From positions 1 to 64,000 of the IMG/VR virus record IMGVR_UViG_3300028588_000016: a stretch of DNA of 64,000 nucleotides; one strand, given 5' to 3'. Source of the DNA: a virus. Below the pieces are notes generated by a model. It had not been told where the DNA came from. It did not search any database and saw only the letters and a program-made list of their open reading frames with translations. Every line of letters begins with the position of its first letter. The first letter of the stretch is position 1. The position numbers and the translations under genes were made by a program. Positions 3,611-64,000 of this stretch are shown one piece after another.

Positions 3611-4650
3611 TGGGATTTATTGAAATACTAGTGTTCGCTATCCTAGTGATAGCGGCACTTGCTGCGGATTTAGTATTCGTAGGCGGTAAAGGTGTGGCTC
3701 CCTCAATGAAAACAGCCGGTATCTGGACAGGTAGCTTTATCAGTATTGCCATAGCATATGGTATCTTTTTACACATTGATGCAGGTGCTCAAATAGCAAC
3801 AGAATACTTTACAGCGTACGCAATAGAGAAAGTCCTAAGTGTGGATAACTTATTCGTATTTATATTAGTATTCGGTTTCTTTAAAGTACCTGCAGCGTAT
3901 GAGCATAAAGTTCTATTCTACGGTATTATAGGTGCATTTATATTACGTGGTATCTTTATCTTTGCAGGTGCGACGTTTATTGATTGGACTTACTTTGATG
4001 CTTTCGGTTACCATATTAACGGTGTACTGACGATCTTCGGTTTAATTCTAATTTGGAAAGGTTATGGAGCTTTTAGAGAGTCTATAGGTTCTGGAGACGA
4101 TGAAGATGAAGACTTTAATAACACATTTGGTGCTAAGGTTGTACGTTGGTTAACAGGTGGTAAAGTACTTACTGAATACGATGGTGATAAGTTTTTTACT
4201 ACACGATATTTTGACGATAAAGCTAGAAGTATATATAAAGGTGTTAATACTGACGTTAGCAAATTCAAAGCGGTTAAATACGGTACTTTACTGTTAGTCG
4301 TAGTAGGTGTAGTTGAATTTACTGACGTATTATTCGCAGTAGACTCTATTCCTGCTATATTCTCCGTTACACAAAACAAAATGGTACTATATACATCTAA
4401 CATCTTTGCTATCTTAGGTCTTAGAAGTATGTACTTCTTGTTAAAAGGTATGAAAGACAAGTTCCATTTATTGGGATATGGTCTTGCATTCATTTTAGCA
4501 TTCATTGGTGCAAAAATGGTAGTTGCACCATGGTTCCACATTGAAGGAATTACTAGCTTAATCATCGTACTCGGTGTGTTAGCTCTATCTATCGGTTTAT
4601 CATTTATTATTCCAAACAAAGAGGAAAATGTCGAGCAAGAACAAATCTAA
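3610..4650 (+). CDS. terC: TerC/Alx-family membrane protein
   Basis: IEKVLSVDNLFVF and VEFTDVLFAVDSIPAIF..TSNIFAILGLRS; multiple TM helices. Confidence 0.95.
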   Translation: MGFIEILVFAILVIAALAADLVFVGGKGVAPSMKTAGIWTGSFISIAIAYGIFLHIDAGAQIATEYFTAYAIEKVLSVDNLFVFILVFGFFKVPAAYEHKVLFYGIIGAFILRGIFIFAGATFIDWTYFDAFGYHINGVLTIFGLILIWKGYGAFRESIGSGDDEDEDFNNTFGAKVVRWLTGGKVLTEYDGDKFFTTRYFDDKARSIYKGVNTDVSKFKAVKYGTLLLVVVGVVEFTDVLFAVDSIPAIFSVTQNKMVLYTSNIFAILGLRSMYFLLKGMKDKFHLLGYGLAFILAFIGAKMVVAPWFHIEGITSLIIVLGVLALSIGLSFIIPNKEENVEQEQI

Positions 4651-5397: not shown

Positions 5398-5751
5398 ATG
5401 GAGAAGTTAACCGACTTACAAATTGCTGGACACTTATTAGATCTTAACAAGAAAGCGTTAGGAGAAGGTAAGAAGTTTGGCGTTAAGTTCACTACTATGA
5501 AGAAAGTAATGAACCGCAAAACCTGTACGTTTTCAGGTTTACCATTAGGTGGAGAAAATAAACGTAAACTTGTATTAATTGAGCCTAAATTCGGTTATGT
5601 TGATCCTAACATCATTGCAATAGCAGAAGGTGTGGATGAAGTCTACAAGAAATTTAACTCTAAGGCTCTAGCTAATATAGCTAAAAAGCTTAAGAATGTT
5701 GAAGATGCAAAAGCTAGAATAGCTGCATCACAAATTAAAAAGAATGGATAA
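5398..5751 (+). CDS. degenerate HNH-like paralog of 5065..5397
   Basis: Aligns by eye with the upstream ORF (TD..A..L...G..F...K...K.C.F.G.P....I...GY...N.I) but lacks DRID. Confidence 0.6.
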   Translation: MEKLTDLQIAGHLLDLNKKALGEGKKFGVKFTTMKKVMNRKTCTFSGLPLGGENKRKLVLIEPKFGYVDPNIIAIAEGVDEVYKKFNSKALANIAKKLKNVEDAKARIAASQIKKNG

Positions 5752-5989
5752 AGCAATACAAGTGATAATACTCGTGTTGAGTGCTTCATCTATTTGGTTA
5801 ATTAACCGTGTAGAGAAGTGGTCAAGATGGGGTTTCATAATTGGATTAGCTGCACAGCCATTCTGGTTATACACAACCGCAAAGAACGATCAATGGGGTT
5901 TCTTTATCTTGTCTATATTCTATGCTTATTCATGGAGTATGGGTATTTACAATAAATGGATTAAGAATGACAGCACAGGAAATAGCTGA
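5744..5989 (+). CDS. small 3-TM membrane protein, possibly half-PnuC-like
   Basis: Three hydrophobic segments; WGFIIGLAAQPFW and QWGFF..Y.YSW..GIY.KW. Confidence 0.6.
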   Translation: MDKAIQVIILVLSASSIWLINRVEKWSRWGFIIGLAAQPFWLYTTAKNDQWGFFILSIFYAYSWSMGIYNKWIKNDSTGNS

Positions 5990-6383
5990 TAAAATTAGCG
6001 AATGGGAATACGAAGCAGGAGAATCTTTTACAGATTACTTTATGCACGACACCGTCCTTGATGAAGATTGGGGTAAATGGTTAATCAAAGTAGGTCATAA
6101 AGAAAGAGGAGAAGCGATTCTTAAGTCTGTAGAAAGTCATAAGGAAGCTAACCAATTTTGTTGTCAAGACCAAGAATTTCTTTACGGCATATACGTTCAT
6201 CCAGAATTTGTAGAAAGTCTTAGTTGGAAGAAGTGTATTAGTTATGATGTTATTTATGACGACGATTTAGACAACGAAGCTAATCGGGATAAAGATCGTT
6301 TACTTTGGGCACAATTCATATTAGATCCAGATAACCTTTTCTATTTGGATAAATTTAACACATTCTTAGAAGATGACGAGTAA
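5967..6383 (+). CDS. hypothetical protein
   Basis: ORF track entry; internal ATG at 5967 preferred as start. Confidence 0.65.
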   Translation: MTAQEIADKISEWEYEAGESFTDYFMHDTVLDEDWGKWLIKVGHKERGEAILKSVESHKEANQFCCQDQEFLYGIYVHPEFVESLSWKKCISYDVIYDDDLDNEANRDKDRLLWAQFILDPDNLFYLDKFNTFLEDDE

Positions 6384-12939: not shown

Positions 12940-14997
12940 TTGAAAAAGCTAGCTGTATTTGATTTGGAGGTTACTCCTAACGTGTTTCTGTGTTGTCTGA
13001 AACCTGTTGGGGAACCAATCCAAACGTTTGAAATTTCTCCTCGGAGGAATGACATAGGTAAGCTAGTTGATTGTTTTGAAAGCGGTAGGTATGTATTTGT
13101 TGGTTATAACTGTTCGGGGTATGATACTCCTATTATGAACATGCTTATAATGAACAAGTTCAAATTCCTTTACGCTGATTATTTGCAGTGTGCAAGTGCT
13201 GCATTTGAACTATCGACTGCTATAATATCTAAAGGAGATGATAGTAAGTTATCGTTCAAACAATATCTGTATGCAAATCTATTTAAACAGATAGATTTGA
13301 TGACTCTTATGGCCTCACAGGCTTTGAGAGTAGGATTAAAGTCACTTCAAGTGACAATGTGTATGCCAAATGTTAAGGAAATGATTATTGATTGGACTAA
13401 ATTCTTACGCAAGGATCAAGTTGATGATTTAATATTCTACTGTCACAATGATGTTAACAGTACTTCGGAATTGTTAACATTATTAAAGACAGATTTAGCA
13501 CTACGTATTGCTGTGAAGCAAGAATTTGGTATAGAGTGCCTCAGTAAAGATGGCGTTGGTGTAGGGGTTGATGTATTCACGAAATATGTTTGTGAGGAGT
13601 TGAGATGTGGTCCTCGTGACCTCTACAGCAAGGTCGATGTTGATGATGTGATTGCGGTTGGTGATCTTATTCTTCCCGATATTAAATTCAAGACGACTAA
13701 GTTTAACGACTTATTAACTTGGTTTAAGAGCAGGGTTGTTAATCTTCCTGAATGGGAGAAAATGACCAAAGAAGAGAAGAAGAAGGATAACAGATATCGC
13801 AAAACAGTTGTATTCAATAACTTAGCTCATGCTTACGGTCTTGGTGGCTTACACTCTGTAAATAAACCAATGATTTATGAGGAAGACGATGAGTATTACT
13901 ATTCTGATCAAGATGTGGAGTCTTATTATCCGTCATTAACTATTAAGAAAGGATTCGGACCGAGAGGATTCAGAAGAGCTTTCCAAAAGGTTATGACTCG
14001 TATAAAAGCTGAGCGTGTAGAAGCTAAAAATGCAGGTAATAAAGTAAAGGATGTGGCTTTTAAGTTATCTATGAACTCGATTCTTGGTAACTTAAAGAAC
14101 AAATATTCTGCATTTTATGATCCAGCAGCTAACATGGCTATTGCTATCAATGGACAATTGTATTTAACTATACTGATTGAAGAATGCGAACTAAACGGAA
14201 TAGAATGTATCAGTTCTAATACGGATGGTGCGACATTTAAAGTACCTAAGAGAAGTAAAGATTTATTCGATAACATCTGTAAAGAATGGTGTCAGAAAAC
14301 AGAATTTAAATTAGAAGAAGCTCTCTATGAGAAAATTGTAATTTTAGCTGTTAATGACTACATTGCTTTTAAAAAGGGATATAGCGAGATTAAGGATCAA
14401 GTAGACTTCTACGTTCCTGAAAAAGCTATTAGCTTTAACTTTGTAGATTTAAAACTGCAAGGTGATAAAATGAATGAACTTCGTAATAGTTATGTAAAAG
14501 AAAAAGGTGACTTTATAACTAGTCCACGTCTCGGCAAAGGCATGGATTCGTTGATTGTTCCGAAAGCTTTACAGAACTTTTATGGCAAAGGTATTCCTAT
14601 TGAAGAAACTATCCGTGACTTTAGATCCATTCATGATTATATGAAAATGGAGAAAGTGGGTAAGCAATTCAATGTTGAATATGGAGGAGAACCGCAACAA
14701 CACATTAACAGGTTCTATGTAAGTAAAAGTAAACCTTATCTGATGAAGTGGAAACTGAAAGAGAAAACGGAAAGAGTCGGAAAAGGTAAGTCTGCATTTA
14801 CTAGAATATTACGTGACAAGGATACAGGTGAACCGTTAATGGAGAAATCCTATACGAATTTACTATCCGGTTATGGGGTACAGTTAGCGAACGATCTAAC
14901 ACAAGAAAACGAATACGAGATAAATTATCAGTATTACATATCTGCGACACAGGCTTTAATTGATAAATTAGATCCACCGCAGTTAACATTATTTTAA
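12940..14997 (+). CDS. polB: family B DNA polymerase
   Basis: Exo DLEV, GYN..YD, YCHND; pol DVESYYPS, K..NS..G, NTDG. Confidence 0.93.
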   Translation: MKKLAVFDLEVTPNVFLCCLKPVGEPIQTFEISPRRNDIGKLVDCFESGRYVFVGYNCSGYDTPIMNMLIMNKFKFLYADYLQCASAAFELSTAIISKGDDSKLSFKQYLYANLFKQIDLMTLMASQALRVGLKSLQVTMCMPNVKEMIIDWTKFLRKDQVDDLIFYCHNDVNSTSELLTLLKTDLALRIAVKQEFGIECLSKDGVGVGVDVFTKYVCEELRCGPRDLYSKVDVDDVIAVGDLILPDIKFKTTKFNDLLTWFKSRVVNLPEWEKMTKEEKKKDNRYRKTVVFNNLAHAYGLGGLHSVNKPMIYEEDDEYYYSDQDVESYYPSLTIKKGFGPRGFRRAFQKVMTRIKAERVEAKNAGNKVKDVAFKLSMNSILGNLKNKYSAFYDPAANMAIAINGQLYLTILIEECELNGIECISSNTDGATFKVPKRSKDLFDNICKEWCQKTEFKLEEALYEKIVILAVNDYIAFKKGYSEIKDQVDFYVPEKAISFNFVDLKLQGDKMNELRNSYVKEKGDFITSPRLGKGMDSLIVPKALQNFYGKGIPIEETIRDFRSIHDYMKMEKVGKQFNVEYGGEPQQHINRFYVSKSKPYLMKWKLKEKTERVGKGKSAFTRILRDKDTGEPLMEKSYTNLLSGYGVQLANDLTQENEYEINYQYYISATQALIDKLDPPQLTLF

Positions 14998-53187: not shown

Positions 53188-53227
53188 AAAAGCCCATATG
53201 ATTAAGTTCATATGGGCTTTTATTTTT
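53188..53227. terminator. bidirectional terminator
   Basis: Perfect 14-bp AAAAGCCCATATGA/TCATATGGGCTTTT stem between convergent genes. Confidence 0.9.
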
Positions 53228-56200
53228 TACTTTGCTTGTCCAGCTATATCAGTTATTGTTCTACCGATACCCGCATTACGAATAACGGTTTTAAACGAAC
53301 TGTCTCCGGTTAACAAACCAAATACATCTTCTGTAGTTTTAGTAATAGTACTAACTGTAGCGGCTAACGATTTAGGATCAACAGCAGCTTTAATGTTAGC
53401 CCAAGGATTTAAATCAGAAGTAGAGTTAATGGCTGCATTTAATACTGTTGCAGACATAGGACTATCTTTCTTCAATTCTCCCCAATCAATTAAACCTTTT
53501 AACATTAAACTAATTAAAGCAAACATCATTAAATCGTAACTCATCATTTTAAAGTTACCTTTAATAGTTTCATCTTGTTTTAAGAAGTTAAACAAGTCTT
53601 CAATTGATCTATCGCTTTTCTTAAACTCACTATAAGTACGAACTATAGATTGATACAATCCTTCCATAAATCTACCTTTCCATGCCATATAAGGTACATC
53701 AGTAACTTCTGTGGTGTATTCAGCAATTCCTTTATCATCGTATCTTAAATATAGTAAAGAACCATCTAAGTCTTTCGCGTGTTCCCAAGAACCTACTTGA
53801 TATTTATCTCCGGCCATAGTATATTGTTGCTTCTTAGCAGTTAACCATGTACGGAATTGAGCGAATAAACTACCTAATAAAGTATGGTGAATCATAATCT
53901 TGTTCTCATGGTCAAATGGACCGTGAACATAATCAGAAAACATCTTTAAAGACTGTTGTTCTTGAGTAGTATAAGCTCTAGGTAAAGCATCTCCTTCTTG
54001 AAGTTGTACTCCGTTTAACATAGAAGAATCTTTATTATGTTCTGCTAAAACAGCAAGATATAAAGCTCTTTGCTTATTGTAATTAGGAGAACTCTTTCTC
54101 CCAGCAGCATAATCAGCAAAACGTTTATCTTTCTTCCAATCATAAACTAATACACCGTCAACCATAGAGTGAGCATCGAAAGTACCGTCTTCCATCATTT
54201 GAGCTACGAATAAAGACATCCTGTTTAAATAATCAGGAGCACCAGATGCCCAAAGCATCCAACGTGAATGCCATTGTGTAAAACCTTGTTTACTCTGTAC
54301 CATCTTCTCAGCAAGTTGATGTCTATCCATATTCGCTACACCATATAAGTGATTCAACTCTTCAATCATTGTAACGTTATTAAAGAAATCTGGAGCATCA
54401 CTTATAACATAATTAAGAGCTTTTCTATAGTTAGCCATAGATGCAGTGCCTTTACCGTATTGATCGGCCATTAATTTAATAGCGTTGTTTATTTGACCTT
54501 GTAGAGTTTCCTTAACTAAGTTTAAAGGACTTAAACCTAGTTGAAAAGTAGTAACTAAACCTTTAGCTAAACCTACATAAGGAGCTACTTTCTCATGAGC
54601 TTCTTCTAAAATCTTCTCATCGAATACTGCTACCTTAATATAATCTCTGATGAAATCATCAATATTTACTAAGTTCTTATTGACAAATCCTTTACTTATA
54701 AGTCGACTAGTAACCCTAACAGCGTGTATTAAAGGTAATACTTCATCGTAAACTTGTTGCCTTATACCTGTAAATACTAATTGACCTAAGATTAATTCTA
54801 AGTTAGTATCAAAATCAGATAAAGGTTTCTCGTCTATAAGTCTTTGTCTAGCTTCTGGATTACCATTGAAATTAAACGTATTATGGAAAGATAACATATC
54901 CTCAGAAGCTTTCTTATTCTTAGTTTGTTCTTCTTCGAATATATGGTGAAAGTTCATAGCATTCTTCCATTTATCTTGAACAGCGTCTAAGAAGCTTTTA
55001 TTATGTGAACGAGATACACTATTAGCTCTCATTAGAGGTACTTGGAAGTATTCTCCACTAGCTTTAGTTTCGTTCTCGTCTTTATTAGGACGTAAGTAGT
55101 TATTAAATGTAGTTAATAAAAACTTAACAAACTCTCTTTCTTTAGGATCAAGTTGTGAGTTAGCTTTATATGGATCTTTTAACATAAAATCTTTATTGAT
55201 TTTACCATCAGCATCTCTAACATATAAGTTATCAAAAGCAGATAAATGATCACCTGCTAACATACTTACGTTTTTATATTTATAATATTCAGCAAACTTC
55301 TTACGAGCAGCTGCGTTAAACTTAACATAATTATCAGACATGGCCTGCATCGCTACCTTAATAGGTCTAAGTGACGCATTGATTGCACTACTAGCAGACT
55401 GTAATTCTGTAGGAGTAGAACCCATTTTAGAACGGTTAAGAGCAACGTTATTAATATCGTCTTCCGGTCTGATATTCATATCTTGCAAACCTATAATAGT
55501 AGCATTCAATAAAGAATAAGCCATACCACTAGGGCTATTGTAATCAATATTATTGATATCAACGTTCTTATTCTTTTGCCACATACGTTGAATGTCTTTC
55601 AACTTACGTAGCTTTTCTGCACGAGATTCTTTTGCCAAACCGTCTTTAATGTCGGCAATCATAGACAATTCATCTCTATCTACAGACTCATCTTTTAAGA
55701 TGTGAACTACTTGTGAAAATAGTAAATTCTCAAAACTAGACTTCTTTACTTTGTCTAAGTTATAAGTATTACCTGTTTTCTTCATTAGTTCTTTATAGTT
55801 AGCTAATAAAGAATCGCTATCTAATGCAACCATTCCCATATCGTGACCAGGGTTCATCACTCTGATTAATCCTATGGAATTACCGGCAGCGTTGACTGTT
55901 TGATAGTTATTGTTTAAGAAGTTAAGAATCTTTAATCCAATAAAGTTAGGTTCAGTAGCAGCAAGTGGTGTAAACATTGCCTCTTGTTTTAAATAAGAGT
56001 CACCGTAAAACTTACCTAGTAAAGTAGTACCTTTTGTTAACTTCTTAACCTCTTTAAGATTTAAATTAGTAGTTGCAACAAATTCAAGTACTCCACTATA
56101 TTTATCTTTAAATACTAAGACACCTTCACCAGTTAATTCGGGTACATCTTGAATTTCCCAAGTACCGTCCATGTAACGACTAAACGCTGTACGTAATAGT

Positions 56201-57600
56201 ATTTTCTTTTCATCTGTAGCATTAGGTTCTAAGTTAGTATATTCACCTTTCTTGATCATACTATCTAAAGTACCTTTTCTTGAATTTGTAAATGTATAAA
56301 CAAAGTTAACTGAGTTCTCTAGGTATTCTCTAATAGCATCTAACTTATCAGTTGCAGACTCTGGTAAGTGAACTCGTTTACGGTCAATATGATCGTAATA
56401 CCAATCTTTCCCTTCCTCGTCTTGCTTAACTCTAGTCTTAAGGAAAGAGCTTACTTGTTCGTCTAAGTTATCATAACCTGTACTCATATCGAACATTTCT
56501 TTGAACTCTTTAGCAATACTACCAGACTTCTTAAACTTATAAAGCTTAGAAGTGTCTACAGGTAAAACATGATTAACTCTTTCGATTATATTTTTCTTGT
56601 CACCGTACAAGATTTGTTTTAAAGCGACAGCAGGTTCAGTTTCAAGATCACCAATCTCCATGTTATCGGTATCTGGATCTTTTAAGTAGATAGGATAAAT
56701 GAACATCTCTGCAACCGGAATACCTTTAGACATCATCAGTTGTTGATAAAATGCTAATTGATATTCAGCTTTTAAAGTCTTAGCTCTATCCCATTCACTA
56801 ATACGTTTATATGATGTTTTGAAATCTCCTAAGTAAGCATTACCATTGCTGTCAATACCTACTAAATCGATGATACCTACTATCTTTGTAGCGTCATCGT
56901 GGATAACCATTTCAGCAATAAATTGCATTTTAGGATCACCCGATCTATCAATCATTTCCTTTTTAGCGTCTTCAAGATACTTCACGTATTTAACCATTAA
57001 CTCTAAGTCTAAAGGTTTATCGTGCTTATCAAGTAGTTGTTGAGGATCAGTAATACCATCATTGAAATACATTTGAGCAATACCGTGTAAATCAGTACCC
57101 ATTTTACCAAGTGTTTTCCAACCTGCAATGATATCGTTTACTTGCTCTAATGCCATATTACCTAATTCAACATCTGTAAAATCCTTATTAGCAGGATCGT
57201 TACGTAGTTCCTTAGTTATTAAGTTCTTTTGTCTGGCTGTATAAGCTTTAACGTCTAGTTGACTTATTAAAGGTTTTGCTGTGGCTTTAGTACTAGTTTT
57301 TAAATTATTGATAACAGTAGTTACACCTGTAAATCCTTTACCTGTATTACGAATATTCTCAACTACATCACCGTTAGGAGTTACTCTTGAGATTATATCT
57401 TTATTTTCTTGTTTGATAGCTTTCAATTTAGCCATCGTTTCAGCATATGGATCTAAATCCTTACTAAAGTTAACATCTGATATTTGTGTTGCAGCTTGTA
57501 CTCTATTGTAGTTCTTAGATAAAAAATCATCCAGCTCTTGTTGGGAGCCGAATGATTTAGTTATGCCGTTAAGTTCTATTGTTATATCACAATTTAACAT
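53227..57600 (-). CDS. giant virion cargo protein C with N-terminal PD-(D/E)XK nuclease-like domain
   Basis: 1457 aa; GTDLH, GIIDLV, GDFKTS, YQLAFYQ; hydrophobic segment near the C-terminus; crAss cargo locus. Confidence 0.75.
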   Translation of the reverse strand: MLNCDITIELNGITKSFGSQQELDDFLSKNYNRVQAATQISDVNFSKDLDPYAETMAKLKAIKQENKDIISRVTPNGDVVENIRNTGKGFTGVTTVINNLKTSTKATAKPLISQLDVKAYTARQKNLITKELRNDPANKDFTDVELGNMALEQVNDIIAGWKTLGKMGTDLHGIAQMYFNDGITDPQQLLDKHDKPLDLELMVKYVKYLEDAKKEMIDRSGDPKMQFIAEMVIHDDATKIVGIIDLVGIDSNGNAYLGDFKTSYKRISEWDRAKTLKAEYQLAFYQQLMMSKGIPVAEMFIYPIYLKDPDTDNMEIGDLETEPAVALKQILYGDKKNIIERVNHVLPVDTSKLYKFKKSGSIAKEFKEMFDMSTGYDNLDEQVSSFLKTRVKQDEEGKDWYYDHIDRKRVHLPESATDKLDAIREYLENSVNFVYTFTNSRKGTLDSMIKKGEYTNLEPNATDEKKILLRTAFSRYMDGTWEIQDVPELTGEGVLVFKDKYSGVLEFVATTNLNLKEVKKLTKGTTLLGKFYGDSYLKQEAMFTPLAATEPNFIGLKILNFLNNNYQTVNAAGNSIGLIRVMNPGHDMGMVALDSDSLLANYKELMKKTGNTYNLDKVKKSSFENLLFSQVVHILKDESVDRDELSMIADIKDGLAKESRAEKLRKLKDIQRMWQKNKNVDINNIDYNSPSGMAYSLLNATIIGLQDMNIRPEDDINNVALNRSKMGSTPTELQSASSAINASLRPIKVAMQAMSDNYVKFNAAARKKFAEYYKYKNVSMLAGDHLSAFDNLYVRDADGKINKDFMLKDPYKANSQLDPKEREFVKFLLTTFNNYLRPNKDENETKASGEYFQVPLMRANSVSRSHNKSFLDAVQDKWKNAMNFHHIFEEEQTKNKKASEDMLSFHNTFNFNGNPEARQRLIDEKPLSDFDTNLELILGQLVFTGIRQQVYDEVLPLIHAVRVTSRLISKGFVNKNLVNIDDFIRDYIKVAVFDEKILEEAHEKVAPYVGLAKGLVTTFQLGLSPLNLVKETLQGQINNAIKLMADQYGKGTASMANYRKALNYVISDAPDFFNNVTMIEELNHLYGVANMDRHQLAEKMVQSKQGFTQWHSRWMLWASGAPDYLNRMSLFVAQMMEDGTFDAHSMVDGVLVYDWKKDKRFADYAAGRKSSPNYNKQRALYLAVLAEHNKDSSMLNGVQLQEGDALPRAYTTQEQQSLKMFSDYVHGPFDHENKIMIHHTLLGSLFAQFRTWLTAKKQQYTMAGDKYQVGSWEHAKDLDGSLLYLRYDDKGIAEYTTEVTDVPYMAWKGRFMEGLYQSIVRTYSEFKKSDRSIEDLFNFLKQDETIKGNFKMMSYDLMMFALISLMLKGLIDWGELKKDSPMSATVLNAAINSTSDLNPWANIKAAVDPKSLAATVSTITKTTEDVFGLLTGDSSFKTVIRNAGIGRTITDIAGQAK

Positions 57601-60600
57601 TTAATTTGCAAGTTTTTATTATTCATTAATAGTTTCTTTAATTCTTGTACATCCTGACTCGGCGCTTTATAGAAGTTTATAGTATAGTCTCCAAAGTTTT
57701 CTACTACCTCGAACTCTAAATCTGGAAATAGTTCTTTCAACTTAGGTACATTTCTGTACATTTCGTTTTCTGTACCTTCCATCTGAATTCCTAGTCTAGA
57801 TGCAAACTTAGTAACTGAGTCAACAGCATCCTTTTCTATTTCGGTACTACCTACACTATGTATAGATTGAACTTGACTAGGAGATATCACTCTATAACTA
57901 TCTCCGACTTTCTCAATATTACCTTTAAGGTAAACAAGTTTTGTATTATCGGCTATAGTTGAAACTGGTTGATATATAAACTTTTCTAAAGTAGGTAAGA
58001 ATAAAGCGGGTTCTCCATCTTCAGCTTTAACAAAATAAGATTTAGCAGCTTCATTATTGAATGCTTCAGATTTCGTTTTTAACCAATGTTTCGATGCTTC
58101 TGCTTCACTAAAACCTAAAGATAATAGTTTCGTATACAAACTAGATTTTCTACCGTCAGCGGCTCTTAAATAAGTTCCGTCTTCTAGCGTTTCTTGTTTG
58201 ATATTGTTTACTTCTACAGCAGGTATGAACTCTCCAGTTAACATTGATTTACCAAAATGATTCTGAATCTCTTCAAAAGACATATTCATAATTTCATAGT
58301 TACCTAGTTCAAAGAATGACCTGTTGTTAATGCCGAATAGTTCAGCTAAGAAATTCTTAATAGAGTTATAAACATCGCCTAAGAAGCTTCTATTATCAGA
58401 CTCCCACTTCTTAGTTAACTCATTACCTATTCTACCGTTAAACATTTCTCCTAAGGTTGTAACGAATACTTCCTCAGCTTGTCTGTTTTGATCTAGATTT
58501 GGATAATGTTTAGCTATATTGTCGAATTGCGGATGTGCTGCAAATTTACTAATAATAGTTTGATATAAAGAATTATTGCTTGACTTTAATCCCTGCATAA
58601 TTATGTGACCTAATTCGTGTATAGGTTCAGCTAATGATGCTTTATCTGTATTTAAGAATACTTGATTACCGTATACAAAAGCTCTTTGCTCAGAATATAA
58701 TAAGGTAGCATTAGGATCTAAATCGAATTGTTCAGCTATCTCTTCTGTACTTAATAAGTTCATTTTGATACCGTACATTCCTTCTAATTTAGAAGCTAAT
58801 CCAGTTAGTAATTGCTTACTGGCTTTTGCAGATTTAACAAATGATTTCTTATCAGTAGATGTAAAGTCTTTAGAAAAAGGAGCTTCGTTATCTACTTGAG
58901 TAGTAGCTACACTATTACCTTTAACAGCCATAGTTGTATGTTTGTCTACTAAACTTTTAGCACCGTTCTTAGCCCTACCTTTAAATGAGAAACCAATATT
59001 TGTAATGCTATCTAATCCTGTTTTCTGTCCTTTCTTCTTGTAGATCTCTACAGTACTTCTAGTGATCTTCTGATCTGCTCTGTTTAAGAAACTCTTCTCT
59101 AAAACTATTGAGTTAGTATTCTTAACTACTACTATTCCTTCATAATAACGATTGCCATTATCAGTAGAATACTGACGAGTCATCATATCTCCAACTTGAA
59201 GATCGTTCCAAAGTTCATCAGTATCAGATTTAGCAATAGCATCTTTAGATAAGTAATTATAAGGATTATAATCAGATCTTAAGTTGTTAGTCTTAGTGTG
59301 TTTAAGTACGTAACGCTTAGTTGATTTAACACCTTTATCAGGTGGTGTAAATGATATTTTTTCATCAGGATATACATATTGAGTAGCTACTTCATAATTA
59401 AGTAAATTCTTAGATTTCTTTAATGCTTCTGCAGCTGCTAATGTTTCAAACGTTTGATAAGATTTAGACTTAATAAAATCCTCTCTAGCGTTATCAATTT
59501 TTCTAGTTATCTCTTTATTCGCTCTTAATCCTAATTCTTCGTTATCGACTAGATTATGACCAATACCGAGGATTTTCTCAACAGGTACAGTTTCAATTTT
59601 ATACCACGCAGACGGCATAGAATGCGAGATCTTACCACCAGGAAGCATTGTAACTTTAGGCTTATTAGATTTAATCTGATGTCCTACAACAGGTCTTCCC
59701 GTTACTTCATCGAAATCTAAGACTACAGCAGTACCATAAGGAAATGCAGGATCATTAGACTCAATCATAACAATATCTCCTCTATTTACAGAAGCTACTT
59801 TCTTAAACTTATAGTCTACGTTCTCGTCACCTGTAAATAACTCTGTATGATATAGTTCTTTAACTGATGTGAATGAGTTTGTTTTTACAAAGTCACCATC
59901 TTCATTAAAGATTTCTTGTTTATTCTGGAATAATAGGTAAGTAAGATTAGCTGGAACAGTCTCCCCTTTTTTAAGGATATCTCTTAACTTCATCTTATTC
60001 TCGAAGTTAATAGTTGCTGTTTTCTTAATATTAGCAAAATTAGCAATTACGGCTTTATTGTTGTTATCTCCAAACTCAGATTTGAAATTCTTAACAACGT
60101 TACCGTGATTCTCTTCTAATATTAACATTCCGTTAATCAGACGTTTCTCTACTATACGTATTTTGTTATCCTTGTCAAGTGTTTCTAACGCATCTCCTAA
60201 AGGACGTAATACGGTAAAGTATTCGTATTCCTTTTTAGCTTTAGGATCTTCATTGTATTTAACAACTTGTACAAGATCATTAGGACCGGCATCTCTAAAG
60301 AATAATAGTGATTCTCTTCTAGGTAAGAAGAATGATTTACCTTCATTGTGTGCAAATACGTTGAATTTAGCGCCATCTTTATAAAGTATTTCTTTAGTAA
60401 ATTGTTTTTCATCTACATTCTTACCTTTAAAATAACTAGCAACATTCTTCTTATTCTCCATAATAGAACGTTTAACAGCAGCAGGAATCTGTTTAGCTGT
60501 ATAACGAATATTACCGTAGAACTTACGATATCCTTGAATGTTTTCTTTAGATACGTGACGAGGTCCACTTTGAGTAGCTACTACGAAGAATGTTTGTCCA

Positions 60601-62351
60601 ACTTGTTTATTGTAATAGTTGTAAATAATAGGAGAATATCCTGTTTTCTCTAAGTCTTGTACCCAATTACCAGAAGCATCTTTCTTCATCATGTTATAAC
60701 GTATGATGTCATTCTGACCAAGTCTGAATAAAGAGGCATCGTTACCTGCTAAGGTTTCACTAGGGCCTAATGTTTTAACAGGTTCGCCGTAATTGTTAAT
60801 ATAACGTGCATAGTTAGAACCTCCTAATGTGGCATTCTTACTAGTCGCTTCAAAGAAGTTACGCCATATTTTATTGTTAGCTGTCATTACTTGCTCTGGT
60901 GTGAATGCAGGTAATTCTGTAACTTGTTGATATATTGCTGGATCAATTACACGAGCAAAGTATGCACCGTTAAATCGTATCTCTTCTATGTTACCGTTCT
61001 CTAAATCCTTAAATCTATATATTAGTTTATCAATTATTTGATTGTTACTATCATAAATTTCTAAACGATAACCTCCATCTTCTTCTGCAACTTTTTGTGC
61101 AAAGTAAGTATTATCGTCTCCTTTAAACTTAATATCAACAGTATCTAAAATTTGAAGATTATCCCAATCACGTTTAATATTACTTAAAGCTCTTTCTGCT
61201 TCCTCAACACTTTGTTCTTCACCTTCAACTCCACTTATTCTTGCAATATAATCTTGTAAATCAGAATAGCTTTTAGGGTTGAATTGAGCTATTCTAGGTT
61301 CAGGAGTCTTTTCTACAGCACTTACATTAGGAGTAATTAGTTGAAGATTATCGTATTGATTAAGTACCTCACGTAACGTAGAACCTATTTTAACTTTTAA
61401 ACCCAATAAGTCTTTAACCCATTTGAAGATTCGAGTTAGAACACTTCCTGTATTACGCTCTCCTTGAAAAGGTATTTGATTAAGCTTATTAGCAAATGCT
61501 TTATCTGTAAGTGCATAAGCAAAGATTTCTTTCATACCGTAAGCAGCTATTTCTTCGTTTGTACCAAATTTAGCTTTCTTCTTACCCTCAATTATACTAT
61601 TGTAAACATCGGTAAAATGCTTTGAATCAGCATCTTCTGCATGCTTACGTGCATGAATTGAATCGAAAATAGGCATCAATGCATCTAGAAAACCTACTCT
61701 ATCTTTACGTGCCCATTCATCAAGTTTACGATTAACTTTATAATGTACCATTTCATGAGCTAATACTTTAGCCACTTCGTGATCATCATTAAGCACATCT
61801 AAATCTCCATCATTCTTACCTGTGTAGACTTTAATAGTATCAACAGAACCTGGTGCTCCCATTATAAAAACACCAAAAGCCGAGTCAATATCATCATCAG
61901 GATTACCTGTTGGATTATATTTCTCAGCTTGAAAATGAATTGCAGGAAGATTTAAATCCTCTCCCTCTAACAAGTTTTTCATTAAACCTGCGTACGGGTG
62001 AGTAGCCACTTCTAAATGGGCTTTAAGATCTGATAATTTAACATTACCGTCATGCTTCTTTTTATTAGTCTCTGCTTGTATTCCTACAGGCGAGTTAGTA
62101 AGTGCAGGTGGTAATTGAGTAATCTCAATAGGTTGAAATATGTTTTGAGGTTTAGTTAACTCCGCTACAGTTTCGTATAACTGGTGTGCCGGATCACTCA
62201 ATGCGTTAGTCATAACGTCTTTAATCTGGCGTTTTAAGTCTTTGTTTAACTCTTCTGGAGTTAGATTTTCGTCAACCAAGAGTTTAGGAACCGTAAATGT
62301 CTTACGGTTCCCATCTTGGTAGTACGCTATCTCGTAGTCGCAATTTTTCAT
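57594..62351 (-). CDS. giant virion cargo protein B with two zincin-like HExxH domains
   Basis: 1585 aa; AHEMVH..KEIFA and IHELGH..EEVFV. Confidence 0.75.
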   Translation of the reverse strand: MKNCDYEIAYYQDGNRKTFTVPKLLVDENLTPEELNKDLKRQIKDVMTNALSDPAHQLYETVAELTKPQNIFQPIEITQLPPALTNSPVGIQAETNKKKHDGNVKLSDLKAHLEVATHPYAGLMKNLLEGEDLNLPAIHFQAEKYNPTGNPDDDIDSAFGVFIMGAPGSVDTIKVYTGKNDGDLDVLNDDHEVAKVLAHEMVHYKVNRKLDEWARKDRVGFLDALMPIFDSIHARKHAEDADSKHFTDVYNSIIEGKKKAKFGTNEEIAAYGMKEIFAYALTDKAFANKLNQIPFQGERNTGSVLTRIFKWVKDLLGLKVKIGSTLREVLNQYDNLQLITPNVSAVEKTPEPRIAQFNPKSYSDLQDYIARISGVEGEEQSVEEAERALSNIKRDWDNLQILDTVDIKFKGDDNTYFAQKVAEEDGGYRLEIYDSNNQIIDKLIYRFKDLENGNIEEIRFNGAYFARVIDPAIYQQVTELPAFTPEQVMTANNKIWRNFFEATSKNATLGGSNYARYINNYGEPVKTLGPSETLAGNDASLFRLGQNDIIRYNMMKKDASGNWVQDLEKTGYSPIIYNYYNKQVGQTFFVVATQSGPRHVSKENIQGYRKFYGNIRYTAKQIPAAVKRSIMENKKNVASYFKGKNVDEKQFTKEILYKDGAKFNVFAHNEGKSFFLPRRESLLFFRDAGPNDLVQVVKYNEDPKAKKEYEYFTVLRPLGDALETLDKDNKIRIVEKRLINGMLILEENHGNVVKNFKSEFGDNNNKAVIANFANIKKTATINFENKMKLRDILKKGETVPANLTYLLFQNKQEIFNEDGDFVKTNSFTSVKELYHTELFTGDENVDYKFKKVASVNRGDIVMIESNDPAFPYGTAVVLDFDEVTGRPVVGHQIKSNKPKVTMLPGGKISHSMPSAWYKIETVPVEKILGIGHNLVDNEELGLRANKEITRKIDNAREDFIKSKSYQTFETLAAAEALKKSKNLLNYEVATQYVYPDEKISFTPPDKGVKSTKRYVLKHTKTNNLRSDYNPYNYLSKDAIAKSDTDELWNDLQVGDMMTRQYSTDNGNRYYEGIVVVKNTNSIVLEKSFLNRADQKITRSTVEIYKKKGQKTGLDSITNIGFSFKGRAKNGAKSLVDKHTTMAVKGNSVATTQVDNEAPFSKDFTSTDKKSFVKSAKASKQLLTGLASKLEGMYGIKMNLLSTEEIAEQFDLDPNATLLYSEQRAFVYGNQVFLNTDKASLAEPIHELGHIIMQGLKSSNNSLYQTIISKFAAHPQFDNIAKHYPNLDQNRQAEEVFVTTLGEMFNGRIGNELTKKWESDNRSFLGDVYNSIKNFLAELFGINNRSFFELGNYEIMNMSFEEIQNHFGKSMLTGEFIPAVEVNNIKQETLEDGTYLRAADGRKSSLYTKLLSLGFSEAEASKHWLKTKSEAFNNEAAKSYFVKAEDGEPALFLPTLEKFIYQPVSTIADNTKLVYLKGNIEKVGDSYRVISPSQVQSIHSVGSTEIEKDAVDSVTKFASRLGIQMEGTENEMYRNVPKLKELFPDLEFEVVENFGDYTINFYKAPSQDVQELKKLLMNNKNLQIKC

Positions 62352-62354
62352 TTA

Positions 62355-64000
62355 TTAGCAATCAAGTTGTTTTATTTCTATGTGTTCTAAGAAATTGTTA
62401 AGTCGATTCATTTTAATCTTGTGCTTGTTATCTATGCTTAGATTTCTAAGATTAGATCCTCCATTTGAGATATTAATAACTTTCTCACCGTATACTTGCG
62501 GTTCTAGAGGAGTATAAGTCTCACCGTCTAAATAGAATAATACTGTGTCAGATGTTTCAGTTTCAGCATTGAAAACCTTCTTACCCACAAACTTAGGGTT
62601 AATTCCGTTCTCTTTGTACTTCGGTAAAACATCAACGATTTGTACTAAACCTTTAGCGGCTAAATCTTCACTTTGATAATGTTGCTGATCTGTAAGGATT
62701 ACATCACTCCAATCTAATTCAGACTGGAACTTGTTAAACTGTGTCATTACAGAGTCGTTGTTAAAATTCTCGCTAACTGCATCAAATAGTCTATTAAACG
62801 ATTGACCGTTAGATTTGTTCTTGTTAACAATTAAGTTATACAAATATAACAAATCTAATAGAGATTTACCTCCATAACTGTAATTTTTTAATGTAGCGAA
62901 AGAACCTACTAATGTATCCATTAGAATCTTTTCATCTTCTTTAAGATTACCTGTCATGTTAATAGGCAACTTATAGAACGTGTAGTTTTTACCTAACACT
63001 CTATCTTTTCTACTATCAACTGTTAATTGCTGTAGTAAAGTGTTACCTTTTAAGAACTCATTAGGAGTTTCAATAGTATTATTGTCAGCGTCTTTTATGA
63101 TACCTGCTTTTAAATCAGGAATTACAGTTCTCTCAAACCAATCTACAAAGTTCTCACGTCCTTCAATAGATCCTAATTCAATAGTTTTATCAGCAGTTAA
63201 TGCGTCTTCATCAGTTGTATAATCACCTTTCTTAAGAGTAAATCTTAAATCAGATGCACCCAAGAAGTTAGCAATCATAACATCATCAACAAATCTAGAT
63301 AACATACCGTGTTGATTTCTATTTAAAGGTAATCCGTTAAACGCATCTTTAAAGTCACTCTCGATAGCTTTAATAGTTCTACTTTTAACTGAGAATTTAG
63401 ATTTAGTGTAATCAGTAATAACCGCTAAAGAGAACATCTTAAAGAAGTGATCGTTCTTAGCAAGTACTCCAAGTACGTTAATACCTGTGCCGTTGTAAGA
63501 CTTGATTATGTTTTCTCTAAAGTTTTGATCATTAATGAACTTATAGAAATCGTCTATATCGTTAAGTGATTCAGCATATCTAGGTTCTTTTAAATCCTCG
63601 TCTTCTACTTCGATTACCTTATCTTCCATAAAGTTTGTTATACCTCGGAAGTATCTGTAAAGATCAGCATCAGTTACTTTAATAGATTGATTAATACTTA
63701 AAAGTTTACCTAACATATCGAAGTCTTCACGAGAGTCTAGTAACTCTTTAAGTACTTCAAATACTTCATTATCAATACGCGCAGGTATTAATTTACGAGT
63801 AGCATCGTTATAACGATTATAAGCAACAGCTGCATTAATAGCTTTATCTTTCTTAGTAGCTCTAGGTGCATAATCTTGATCCATTTCACTACCTTCAATG
63901 AAGGCTTCGTCATTCATACCCATATCTTGCTCCATTTCAAAAGAAGTTTCTGATTCTTGGAAAGCTTCTGACGCTTCTTGACTCAATAAAGCAAGTTGTT
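62355..64000 (-). CDS. C-terminal part of giant virion cargo protein A (possibly the RNA polymerase-bearing protein), 5'-truncated
   Basis: Frame stays open past the 63986 TTG to the window edge; LYLYNLIVNK motif; no catalytic DxDxD visible. Confidence 0.65.
   Translation of the reverse strand, partial: QLALLSQEASEAFQESETSFEMEQDMGMNDEAFIEGSEMDQDYAPRATKKDKAINAAVAYNRYNDATRKLIPARIDNEVFEVLKELLDSREDFDMLGKLLSINQSIKVTDADLYRYFRGITNFMEDKVIEVEDEDLKEPRYAESLNDIDDFYKFINDQNFRENIIKSYNGTGINVLGVLAKNDHFFKMFSLAVITDYTKSKFSVKSRTIKAIESDFKDAFNGLPLNRNQHGMLSRFVDDVMIANFLGASDLRFTLKKGDYTTDEDALTADKTIELGSIEGRENFVDWFERTVIPDLKAGIIKDADNNTIETPNEFLKGNTLLQQLTVDSRKDRVLGKNYTFYKLPINMTGNLKEDEKILMDTLVGSFATLKNYSYGGKSLLDLLYLYNLIVNKNKSNGQSFNRLFDAVSENFNNDSVMTQFNKFQSELDWSDVILTDQQHYQSEDLAAKGLVQIVDVLPKYKENGINPKFVGKKVFNAETETSDTVLFYLDGETYTPLEPQVYGEKVINISNGGSNLRNLSIDNKHKIKMNRLNNFLEHIEIKQLDC

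Follow-up and report, generated by a model that had tools for sequence, protein, structure and literature searches.

Paired terminal cysteines at the breaks of a split cargo polyprotein in crAss-like phages suggest an end-to-end tether

Introduction

A crAss-like phage has to bring its giant cargo proteins into the particle in the right copy numbers and release them in the right sequence, a problem on which pairs of cysteines at the ends of these proteins may bear. Among the viruses of the human gut, crAss-like phages rank first in abundance. The locus studied here belongs to IMG/VR virus record IMGVR_UViG_3300028588_000016, which is 183,312 bases long; its bases 1-64000 are the window, that is the whole stretch of DNA that was analysed. 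Four giant proteins, here called Z, A, B and C, are encoded in a row on the minus strand, and the window contains all of B and C and the end of A. An earlier note, made from the letters of the window alone, had seen that the only cysteines of C, B and the visible part of A sit where these proteins meet head to tail, and had proposed that they link the proteins into one ordered thread. Here we follow the cysteines through the rest of the record, through related viral contigs and through cultured phages. The conserved terminal pairs suggest a hitherto undescribed end-to-end tether, probably a disulfide.

The cargo giants of crAss001 (PMC10172136) and phi14:2 (bioRxiv 10.1101/2020.03.07.982082) were found in virions by mass spectrometry. 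One of them, phi14:2 gp66, is a virion RNA polymerase that is delivered into the host and transcribes the early genes, and early transcription is resistant to rifampicin (bioRxiv 10.1101/2020.03.07.982082).

Materials and methods

Cargo genes upstream of the window were read from the whole record. A full HMMER search with C gave a family of 564 representatives, and cysteines were counted in the best 150 of these, 136 of which are full-length. Eighty related loci from metagenomic viral contigs, numbered with an L below, were fetched with a 12-sequence alignment and their open reading frames (ORFs) were called by simple ORF rules. Most of the related loci (L011-L083) need TGA read as tryptophan, and a few TAG read as glutamine, for their late gene block to be legible; the present genome is cleanly legible with the standard code. 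Rows that need either of these codes were left out of the alignment used for complex prediction.

Results

Cysteines of the giant proteins

The minus strand carries six ORFs of 627 to 3425 amino acids (aa) in head-to-tail order, from record position 88343 down to 53227, and the GC skew changes sign there. The four consecutive giants Z, A, B and C contain six cysteines in 9416 aa, where about 95 would be expected because the other ORFs of this genome average 1.01% cysteine; a 620-aa ORF at 13135-14997 of the window, for instance, has 10. Each of the six is at most six residues away from an end that faces the neighbouring protein. Z (2949 aa, record 72636-81485, outside the window) has its sole cysteine at the penultimate residue 2948 (..KETKC followed by N), A has one at residue 6 (MINITC) and one at its last residue, B (1585 aa) has one at residue 4 (MKNC) and one at its last residue, 1585 (..QIKC), and C (1457 aa) has a single one at residue 4 (MLNC). 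The ends thus form three junction-facing pairs, and the outer ends of the chain, the N-terminus of Z and the C-terminus of C, are without cysteine. The chance that six randomly placed cysteines all fall in the 36 junction-facing positions is about 3e-15. The two giant ORFs upstream of Z (627 and 1650 aa; record 81503-88343, outside the window) have no cysteine, which brings the six giants of this genome, 11,693 aa together, to zero internal and six conserved terminal cysteines. Cysteine is likewise missing from crAss001 gp46, phi14:2 g068 and g070, DAC15 gp60 and Fpv1 gp31 and gp32.

Reading the three minus-strand ORFs again confirmed the cysteine counts and positions of the earlier note, as well as the start M-x-N-C-D-x-x-I common to B and C. 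The note had named internal cysteines in the unseen part of A as evidence that would speak against its reading; at its full length of 3425 aa, up to record position 72632, A has the two terminal ones only. The DNA at the junctions is as had been described, TGC TAA TAA ATG between A and B and an overlap of start and stop, A-ATG-T-TAA (ATGTTAA), between B and C. Because of this overlap the last codon of B is forced to begin with TG.

Conservation in the C family

A start of the form M-x(1-3)-C, or a cysteine within the first ten residues, is present in 130 of the 136 full-length C-family representatives, nearly always at residue 3 or 4, and C4 is one of 14 invariant columns in a family alignment with 24-38% identity. 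None of the 136 has a cysteine in its last five residues. Six representatives are exceptions without an early cysteine; five of these were checked in their contigs and all five turned out to be artefacts: three had mis-called starts with an in-frame MxxC upstream, one lay on a contig containing ambiguous bases and one was frameshifted. It was the in-frame upstream M-x-x-C by which the mis-called starts (P0043, P0062 and P0105) were recognised. The number of internal cysteines per protein ranges from 0 to 17 among the best 150.

Junctions in related loci and cultured phages

Read in the right code, the 80 loci give 35 distinct signatures of adjacent ORFs, and 30 of these are true protein junctions. 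Both cysteines are present in 28 of the 30, the upstream one among the last three residues and its downstream counterpart at residue 3-7. The remaining signatures are two borders after the last protein, three borders beside LAGLIDADG ORFs and two half cases, which are weighed in the Discussion.

The rule also holds in phi14:2, crAss001, DAC15, crAss002, CrAssphage LMMB (a relative of p-crAssphage) and Flavobacterium phage Fpv1. In phi14:2 the first protein, g067 (1797 aa), has one cysteine, its last residue (..TIC); the middle one, g066 (2180 aa), has cysteines 3 and 2179 (start MAC, end ..QECK); and the last, g065 (1421 aa), has cysteine 3 (start MSC), which makes four cysteines in 5398 aa. 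The corresponding first, middle and last proteins of crAss001, which together come to about 694 kDa, are gp47 (cysteine 2339 of 2341 residues, end ..RCNS), gp50 (cysteines 5, 1334 and 2404 of 2412, start MSKRC) and gp49 (cysteine 5, start MAKKC), and those of DAC15 are gp61 (2220 of 2222), gp63 (cysteine 5, three internal ones and the last residue) and gp62 (cysteines 4 and 619). The other three phages have two proteins only: in CrAssphage LMMB one of 1957 aa ending in ..SCM and one of 4070 aa starting with MSC; in Fpv1 gp33, 4401 aa with one cysteine at 4400, and gp34, which starts with MAC; in crAss002 gp32, ending in ..VCS, and gp33, whose annotated sequence has M-S-C at residues 33-35. The annotated start of this crAss002 gp33 (L086:17088-17190) seems to be 32 codons too far upstream, and the M-S-C at 33-35 suits the family rule. 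With the C-family starts, the true junctions and the cultured phages taken together, the conservation across Crassvirales on which the earlier proposal turned is borne out.

Two smaller proteins of the cargo zone have a lone near-terminal cysteine as well, one in CrAssphage LMMB (L085, 5576-8161; ..QSCR, residue 860 of 861) and one in crAss002 (L086, 6393-8066; ..FRCGGKKKIA, residue 550 of 557). No N-terminal cysteine partner was identified for these smaller LMMB and crAss002 proteins.

Fission, fusion and introns

The first gene of crAss001, like that of DAC15, is on the strand opposite to the other two and far from the start of its partner. Gaps between genes at junctions that obey the rule range from -11 to +10 nucleotides, and the codons TGT and TGC are both in use. 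The rule is therefore not a feature of the DNA. As these arrangements indicate, it is at the protein level that it operates.

The position of the breaks differs among lineages. L004 has one at about residue 2650 of A, where A of this genome as well as the proteins of L036, L006 and L013 are continuous and have no cysteine, and the break of the A/B type is fused, and cysteine-free, in L011 and L013. B of this genome has a C-terminal extension of 195 aa compared to most homologues and has its cysteine at the new last residue; homologues without the extension have it 1-3 residues from their own end, and in L050, where the extension is shorter, the cysteine is kept at the old position. Judging from these cases, cysteines occur only where the chain is broken, gained at gene fission and lost at fusion, in pairs. 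The intron-split genes provide a negative control: exon borders beside LAGLIDADG endonuclease ORFs have no cysteine, and a break in the DNA alone therefore does not call for one. In several related phages the gene of the giant RNA polymerase is interrupted by such LAGLIDADG ORFs (Pfam PF03161, E 1e-18 to 5e-33), namely at L011:5792-6526, L051:4841-5581 and L014:6741-7685. In L011 and L051 the interruption lies just past the DFDID motif, which looks like intron invasion of the catalytic site.

The cysteine pattern is conserved, depends on true protein ends and is independent of the DNA context. By comparison of the loci, the block amounts to a single very long polyprotein, divided into differing numbers of genes according to lineage; at each cut a cysteine is among the last three residues of the upstream piece, and M-x(1-4)-Cys opens the downstream one.

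Identity of the giant proteins

In this phage the proteins Z, A, B and C most probably make up the crAss-like RNA-polymerase cargo block. A contains a DFDID motif at residue 2395, beyond the window; the motif is catalytic in virion RNA polymerases of the crAss type, and its counterpart in phi14:2 gp66 is 1361-DFDID-1365. A matches RNA-polymerase-bearing giants of IMG/VR crAss-like contigs with E-values from 1e-30 to 1e-54 and, weakly, crAss001 gp50 (blastp, E 4e-6 over 201 residues); phmmer with residues 1900-3000 found no match among Protein Data Bank sequences. Residues 1531-1915 of Z, inside this 2949-aa cargo protein, are a superfamily 1 helicase-like stretch (AAA_30 and a sub-threshold UvrD_C_2). 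By analogy with the cultured relatives, all four proteins are most likely packed in the particle and injected by this phage.

B contains two zincin-type HExxH motifs, HEMVH and HELGH, and in the HELGH domain H106, E107 and H110 are invariant in alignment A4. The predicted fold of its C-terminal 446 residues has low confidence, with a mean predicted local distance difference test (pLDDT) score of 51. In the AlphaFold2 (AF2) model of C residues 1-5 are coil, a flexible tail with Cys4, followed by a beta-hairpin (6-17) and then a helix. C further has a nuclease-fold domain, which gives the sole PHROGs match among A, B and C (PHROG 466 exonuclease, E 8e-6, weak); Foldseek, at an E-value of about 1e-3 and a probability of 0.97-1.0, aligned it to chains of AddAB, the Cas4 family, Exo5 and Dna2, and H172, D245 and K261 are invariant. 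A Pfam scan of A, B and C found no family. Close relatives were not found by megablast of the region against phage records, word-based searches with B, as protein and as loci, gave no match, and tblastn with C against phage records found three unannotated records only. The features of the cargo genes within the window are collected in Table 1. A 113-aa ORF on the plus strand (window 53198-53539) that runs antisense across the 3' end of gene C is probably no gene.

Table 1. Cargo-gene features, with positions in the 64,000-nucleotide window
Feature	Position	Strand	Remark
Protein C, last link of chain	53227..57600	-	1457 aa, one Cys (residue 4)
RecB/Cas4/Exo5-like PD-(D/E)xK nuclease-fold domain of C, residues ~150-310	56671..57153	-	PHROG 466 and Foldseek
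N-terminal 30 residues of C	57511..57600	-	AF2 model, mean pLDDT 78; family consensus MxxCxYxLxxNGxxxxFxSxxEL
Cys4 codon TGT of C, N-terminal junction Cys	57589..57591	-	130/136 full-length homologues with Cys in first 10 residues
Protein B, middle link	57594..62351	-	1585 aa, Cys only at residue 4 and last
Cys1585 codon TGT of B, C-terminal junction Cys	57597..57599	-	overlaps start codon region of C
HELGH, second HExxH of B	58605..58619	-	domain common to the protein preceding the C family in most aligned loci
HEMVH, first HExxH of B	61743..61757	-	lineage-specific N-terminal part
Cys4 codon TGC of B, N-terminal junction Cys	62340..62342	-	
Protein A, C-terminal 547 residues	62355..64000	-	rest of 3425 aa outside the window
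Cys3425 codon TGC of A, C-terminal junction Cys	62358..62360	-	

Discussion

A tether through terminal cysteines

What could terminal cysteines that come and go with the breaks of a polyprotein be for? We infer a bond between the two cysteines at each junction, probably a disulfide, that keeps the pieces together. That such pairs, most likely by way of disulfides, tether the proteins end to end into one ordered thread has, in our estimate, about an even chance of being correct. Flexible cysteine-bearing tails would pair across each break and an inter-protein disulfide would form in the assembled particle, by which the pieces would be joined head to tail in the gene order Z-A-B-C over some 9400 residues. 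Packing would then be in a 1:1 ratio, the thread would exit through the tail with its N-terminus first, and the link would be cut by reduction in the host cytoplasm, which would free the parts. Internal cysteines may be avoided because the chain must not branch or mis-pair. The more specific version, in which disulfides would replace peptide bonds at every split of the cargo polyprotein and yield a covalent thread of 5000-9400 residues, here about 1 MDa (at about 110 Da per residue), with fixed 1:1 packing, threading in gene order and reduction in the cytoplasm, falls a little short of even odds. A disulfide is taken as the likeliest bond because a single cysteine per side, the lack of a conserved co-ligand and a variable position suit a flexible tether over a metal site, and it is further favoured because disulfides occur elsewhere in crAss001 particles. 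The core of the earlier proposal, in which the C-terminal cysteine of one protein pairs with the N-terminal one of its neighbour to give an ordered chain, gained strong comparative support, from conservation across Crassvirales and beyond, independence of gene adjacency, fission and fusion, and the cysteine-free outer ends.

Several points weigh against this tether. Since some lineages have up to 17 internal cysteines, avoidance of cysteine is not universal. Both half cases, which belong to the lineage of L050 and L055, break strict adjacency: one C-terminal cysteine faces a protein without an N-terminal cysteine, and one N-terminal cysteine follows a protein with a conserved cysteine about 100 residues from its end. 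In crAss001 gp50 the C-terminal cysteine is nine residues away from the end. Given a reducing host cytoplasm and an anaerobic gut, a disulfide would have to form inside the particle or after lysis. A search of the phage genome for thioredoxin or glutaredoxin found neither; a search for an Erv1-type sulfhydryl oxidase had no match, in the control genomes as well as here, and is hence uninformative. Complex prediction for B 1140-1585 with C 1-330 scored 0.21 against a mark of 0.32, which counts neither for nor against binding.

Other readings of the pattern

The overlap ATGTTAA shows how the DNA of a junction can force TGN as a last codon, and the entire pattern might be chance or a by-product of such junctions, be it stop/start overlap, translational coupling or a promoter-like motif. 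The probability of about 3e-15 in this genome alone, the persistence of the rule over variable gaps and with both codons, and above all the non-adjacent, opposite-strand partners in crAss001 and DAC15, which refute it, make this explanation practically negligible. A bridging metal (zinc, iron or copper) or another thiol-based contact, possibly with two copies of a junction supplying four ligands, is a more serious candidate, though an unlikely one. It would draw on the very same pairing evidence as the disulfide tether and would not require an oxidising step, and acidic residues often found just before the C-terminal cysteine (..EDCK, ..EYCE, ..YEC, ..QECK) are potential extra ligands. However, there is one cysteine per side and no conserved histidine or second cysteine nearby, and a cysteine whose position varies from last to third-last (once ninth-last) and from residue 3 to 6, on disordered tails, is a poor fit to a defined site.

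Slightly less probable again is that each terminal cysteine acts alone, by anchoring the protein to another part of the virion, for example the portal or the inside of the capsid, by sensing the redox state or as a site of chemical modification, with pairing as a by-product. The junctions of L050 and L055 with just one of the two cysteines at the end would suit such a role, but it does not account for the absence of an N-terminal cysteine from the first protein in 7/7 cultured or complete cases, Z included, nor for the absence of a C-terminal one from the last protein (0/136). Moreover, the numbers of N- and C-terminal cysteines match in every lineage, even in L050, and cysteines appear and vanish pairwise with fission and fusion. 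The cysteines might also serve to ligate or process the proteins, for example by trans-splicing of the intein kind or through a thioester, so that a true polyprotein would be rebuilt or one would be cut; the earlier note had offered, as its less likely alternative, cleavage at Asn/Cys followed by ligation. The start M-x-N-C of B and C does recall the terminal Asn and +1 Cys of inteins, and cysteines found only at breaks would suit a re-joining reaction. Nevertheless, with 0-2 residues after the C-terminal cysteine and 2-5 before the N-terminal one there is no room for a Hint domain, and the residue preceding the cysteine is Asn in only 33 of 130 cases (Lys 24, Gly 21, Ala 12, Ser 10). Because fused homologues have no cysteine at the homologous sites, the cysteines are not cleavage determinants, and in crAss001 virions gp47, gp49 and gp50 are each listed individually by mass spectrometry (PMC10172136). 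The alternative thus found no support, and we consider it very improbable.

Two further ideas were rejected. A bacterial lipobox cysteine would need a signal peptide of about 15-25 residues in front of it, but nearly all members of the family have the cysteine at residue 3-6. Cyclisation of a middle protein through its own N- and C-terminal cysteines was discarded because the first and last proteins have one cysteine each.

If the tether exists, it would represent a novel viral strategy by which the pieces of a divided polyprotein go on acting as a single chain, and it would explain why the cargo giants avoid internal cysteines. For annotation, the M-x-x-C rule locates true gene starts, and terminal cysteines tell protein ends from intron borders.

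Comparison with known systems

Our literature search found no description of a crAss terminal-cysteine tether, in agreement with the earlier note, which knew of none; most subscription journals were outside its coverage. The words 'cysteine' and 'disulfide' are absent from the phi14:2 preprint (bioRxiv 10.1101/2020.03.07.982082), and in the crAss001 paper 'disulfide' is confined to proteins of the tail and portal vertex, and terminal cysteines of the cargo go unmentioned (PMC10172136). The disulfides of the crAss001 virion are in tail hub and ring proteins and in a gp57 dimer, hence inter-protein disulfides do exist in crassvirus particles (PMC10172136). They differ from the bond proposed here in being fixed parts seen in density, whereas the cargo is unresolved in the density and no cargo disulfide was reported (PMC10172136).

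The present genome resembles the Crassvirales cargo block, gp67-gp66-gp65 in phi14:2 and gp47-gp50-gp49 in crAss001, in its giants at the end of the structural arm, its DFDID motif and one member of the zincin HExxH type. That block is fused into one polyprotein in some phages, and crAss001 and phi14:2 follow the terminal-cysteine rule described here. Unlike these two, the present genome has four links instead of three and about 9400 aa instead of 5400-6100, and no close relative.

Suppression of cysteine is known from the ejection operon of N4-like phages (Schitoviridae), in N4 gp50 and in DEV gp71, gp72 and gp73 (PMC11445570). Like the N4-type ejection proteins, the proteins described here are giant, count an RNA polymerase among them and have hardly any cysteine, and they are probably packed in the virion and ejected as well. 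In N4-like phages the virion RNA polymerase is a single protein of about 3400-3500 aa with zero cysteines, whereas the crAss-type block is split and has one conserved cysteine on each side of a break.

In two-chain AB toxins an interchain disulfide tethers the enzyme chain to the translocation chain, and reduction in the cytosol frees the enzyme. The logic proposed here would be shared with them, in that a single disulfide holds cargo that crosses a narrow channel unfolded and is freed by reduction in the cytoplasm of the target. The toxin chains come from one nicked polypeptide, whereas here separate gene products, several in a row, would be joined inside a phage particle, an analogy of mechanism without homology.

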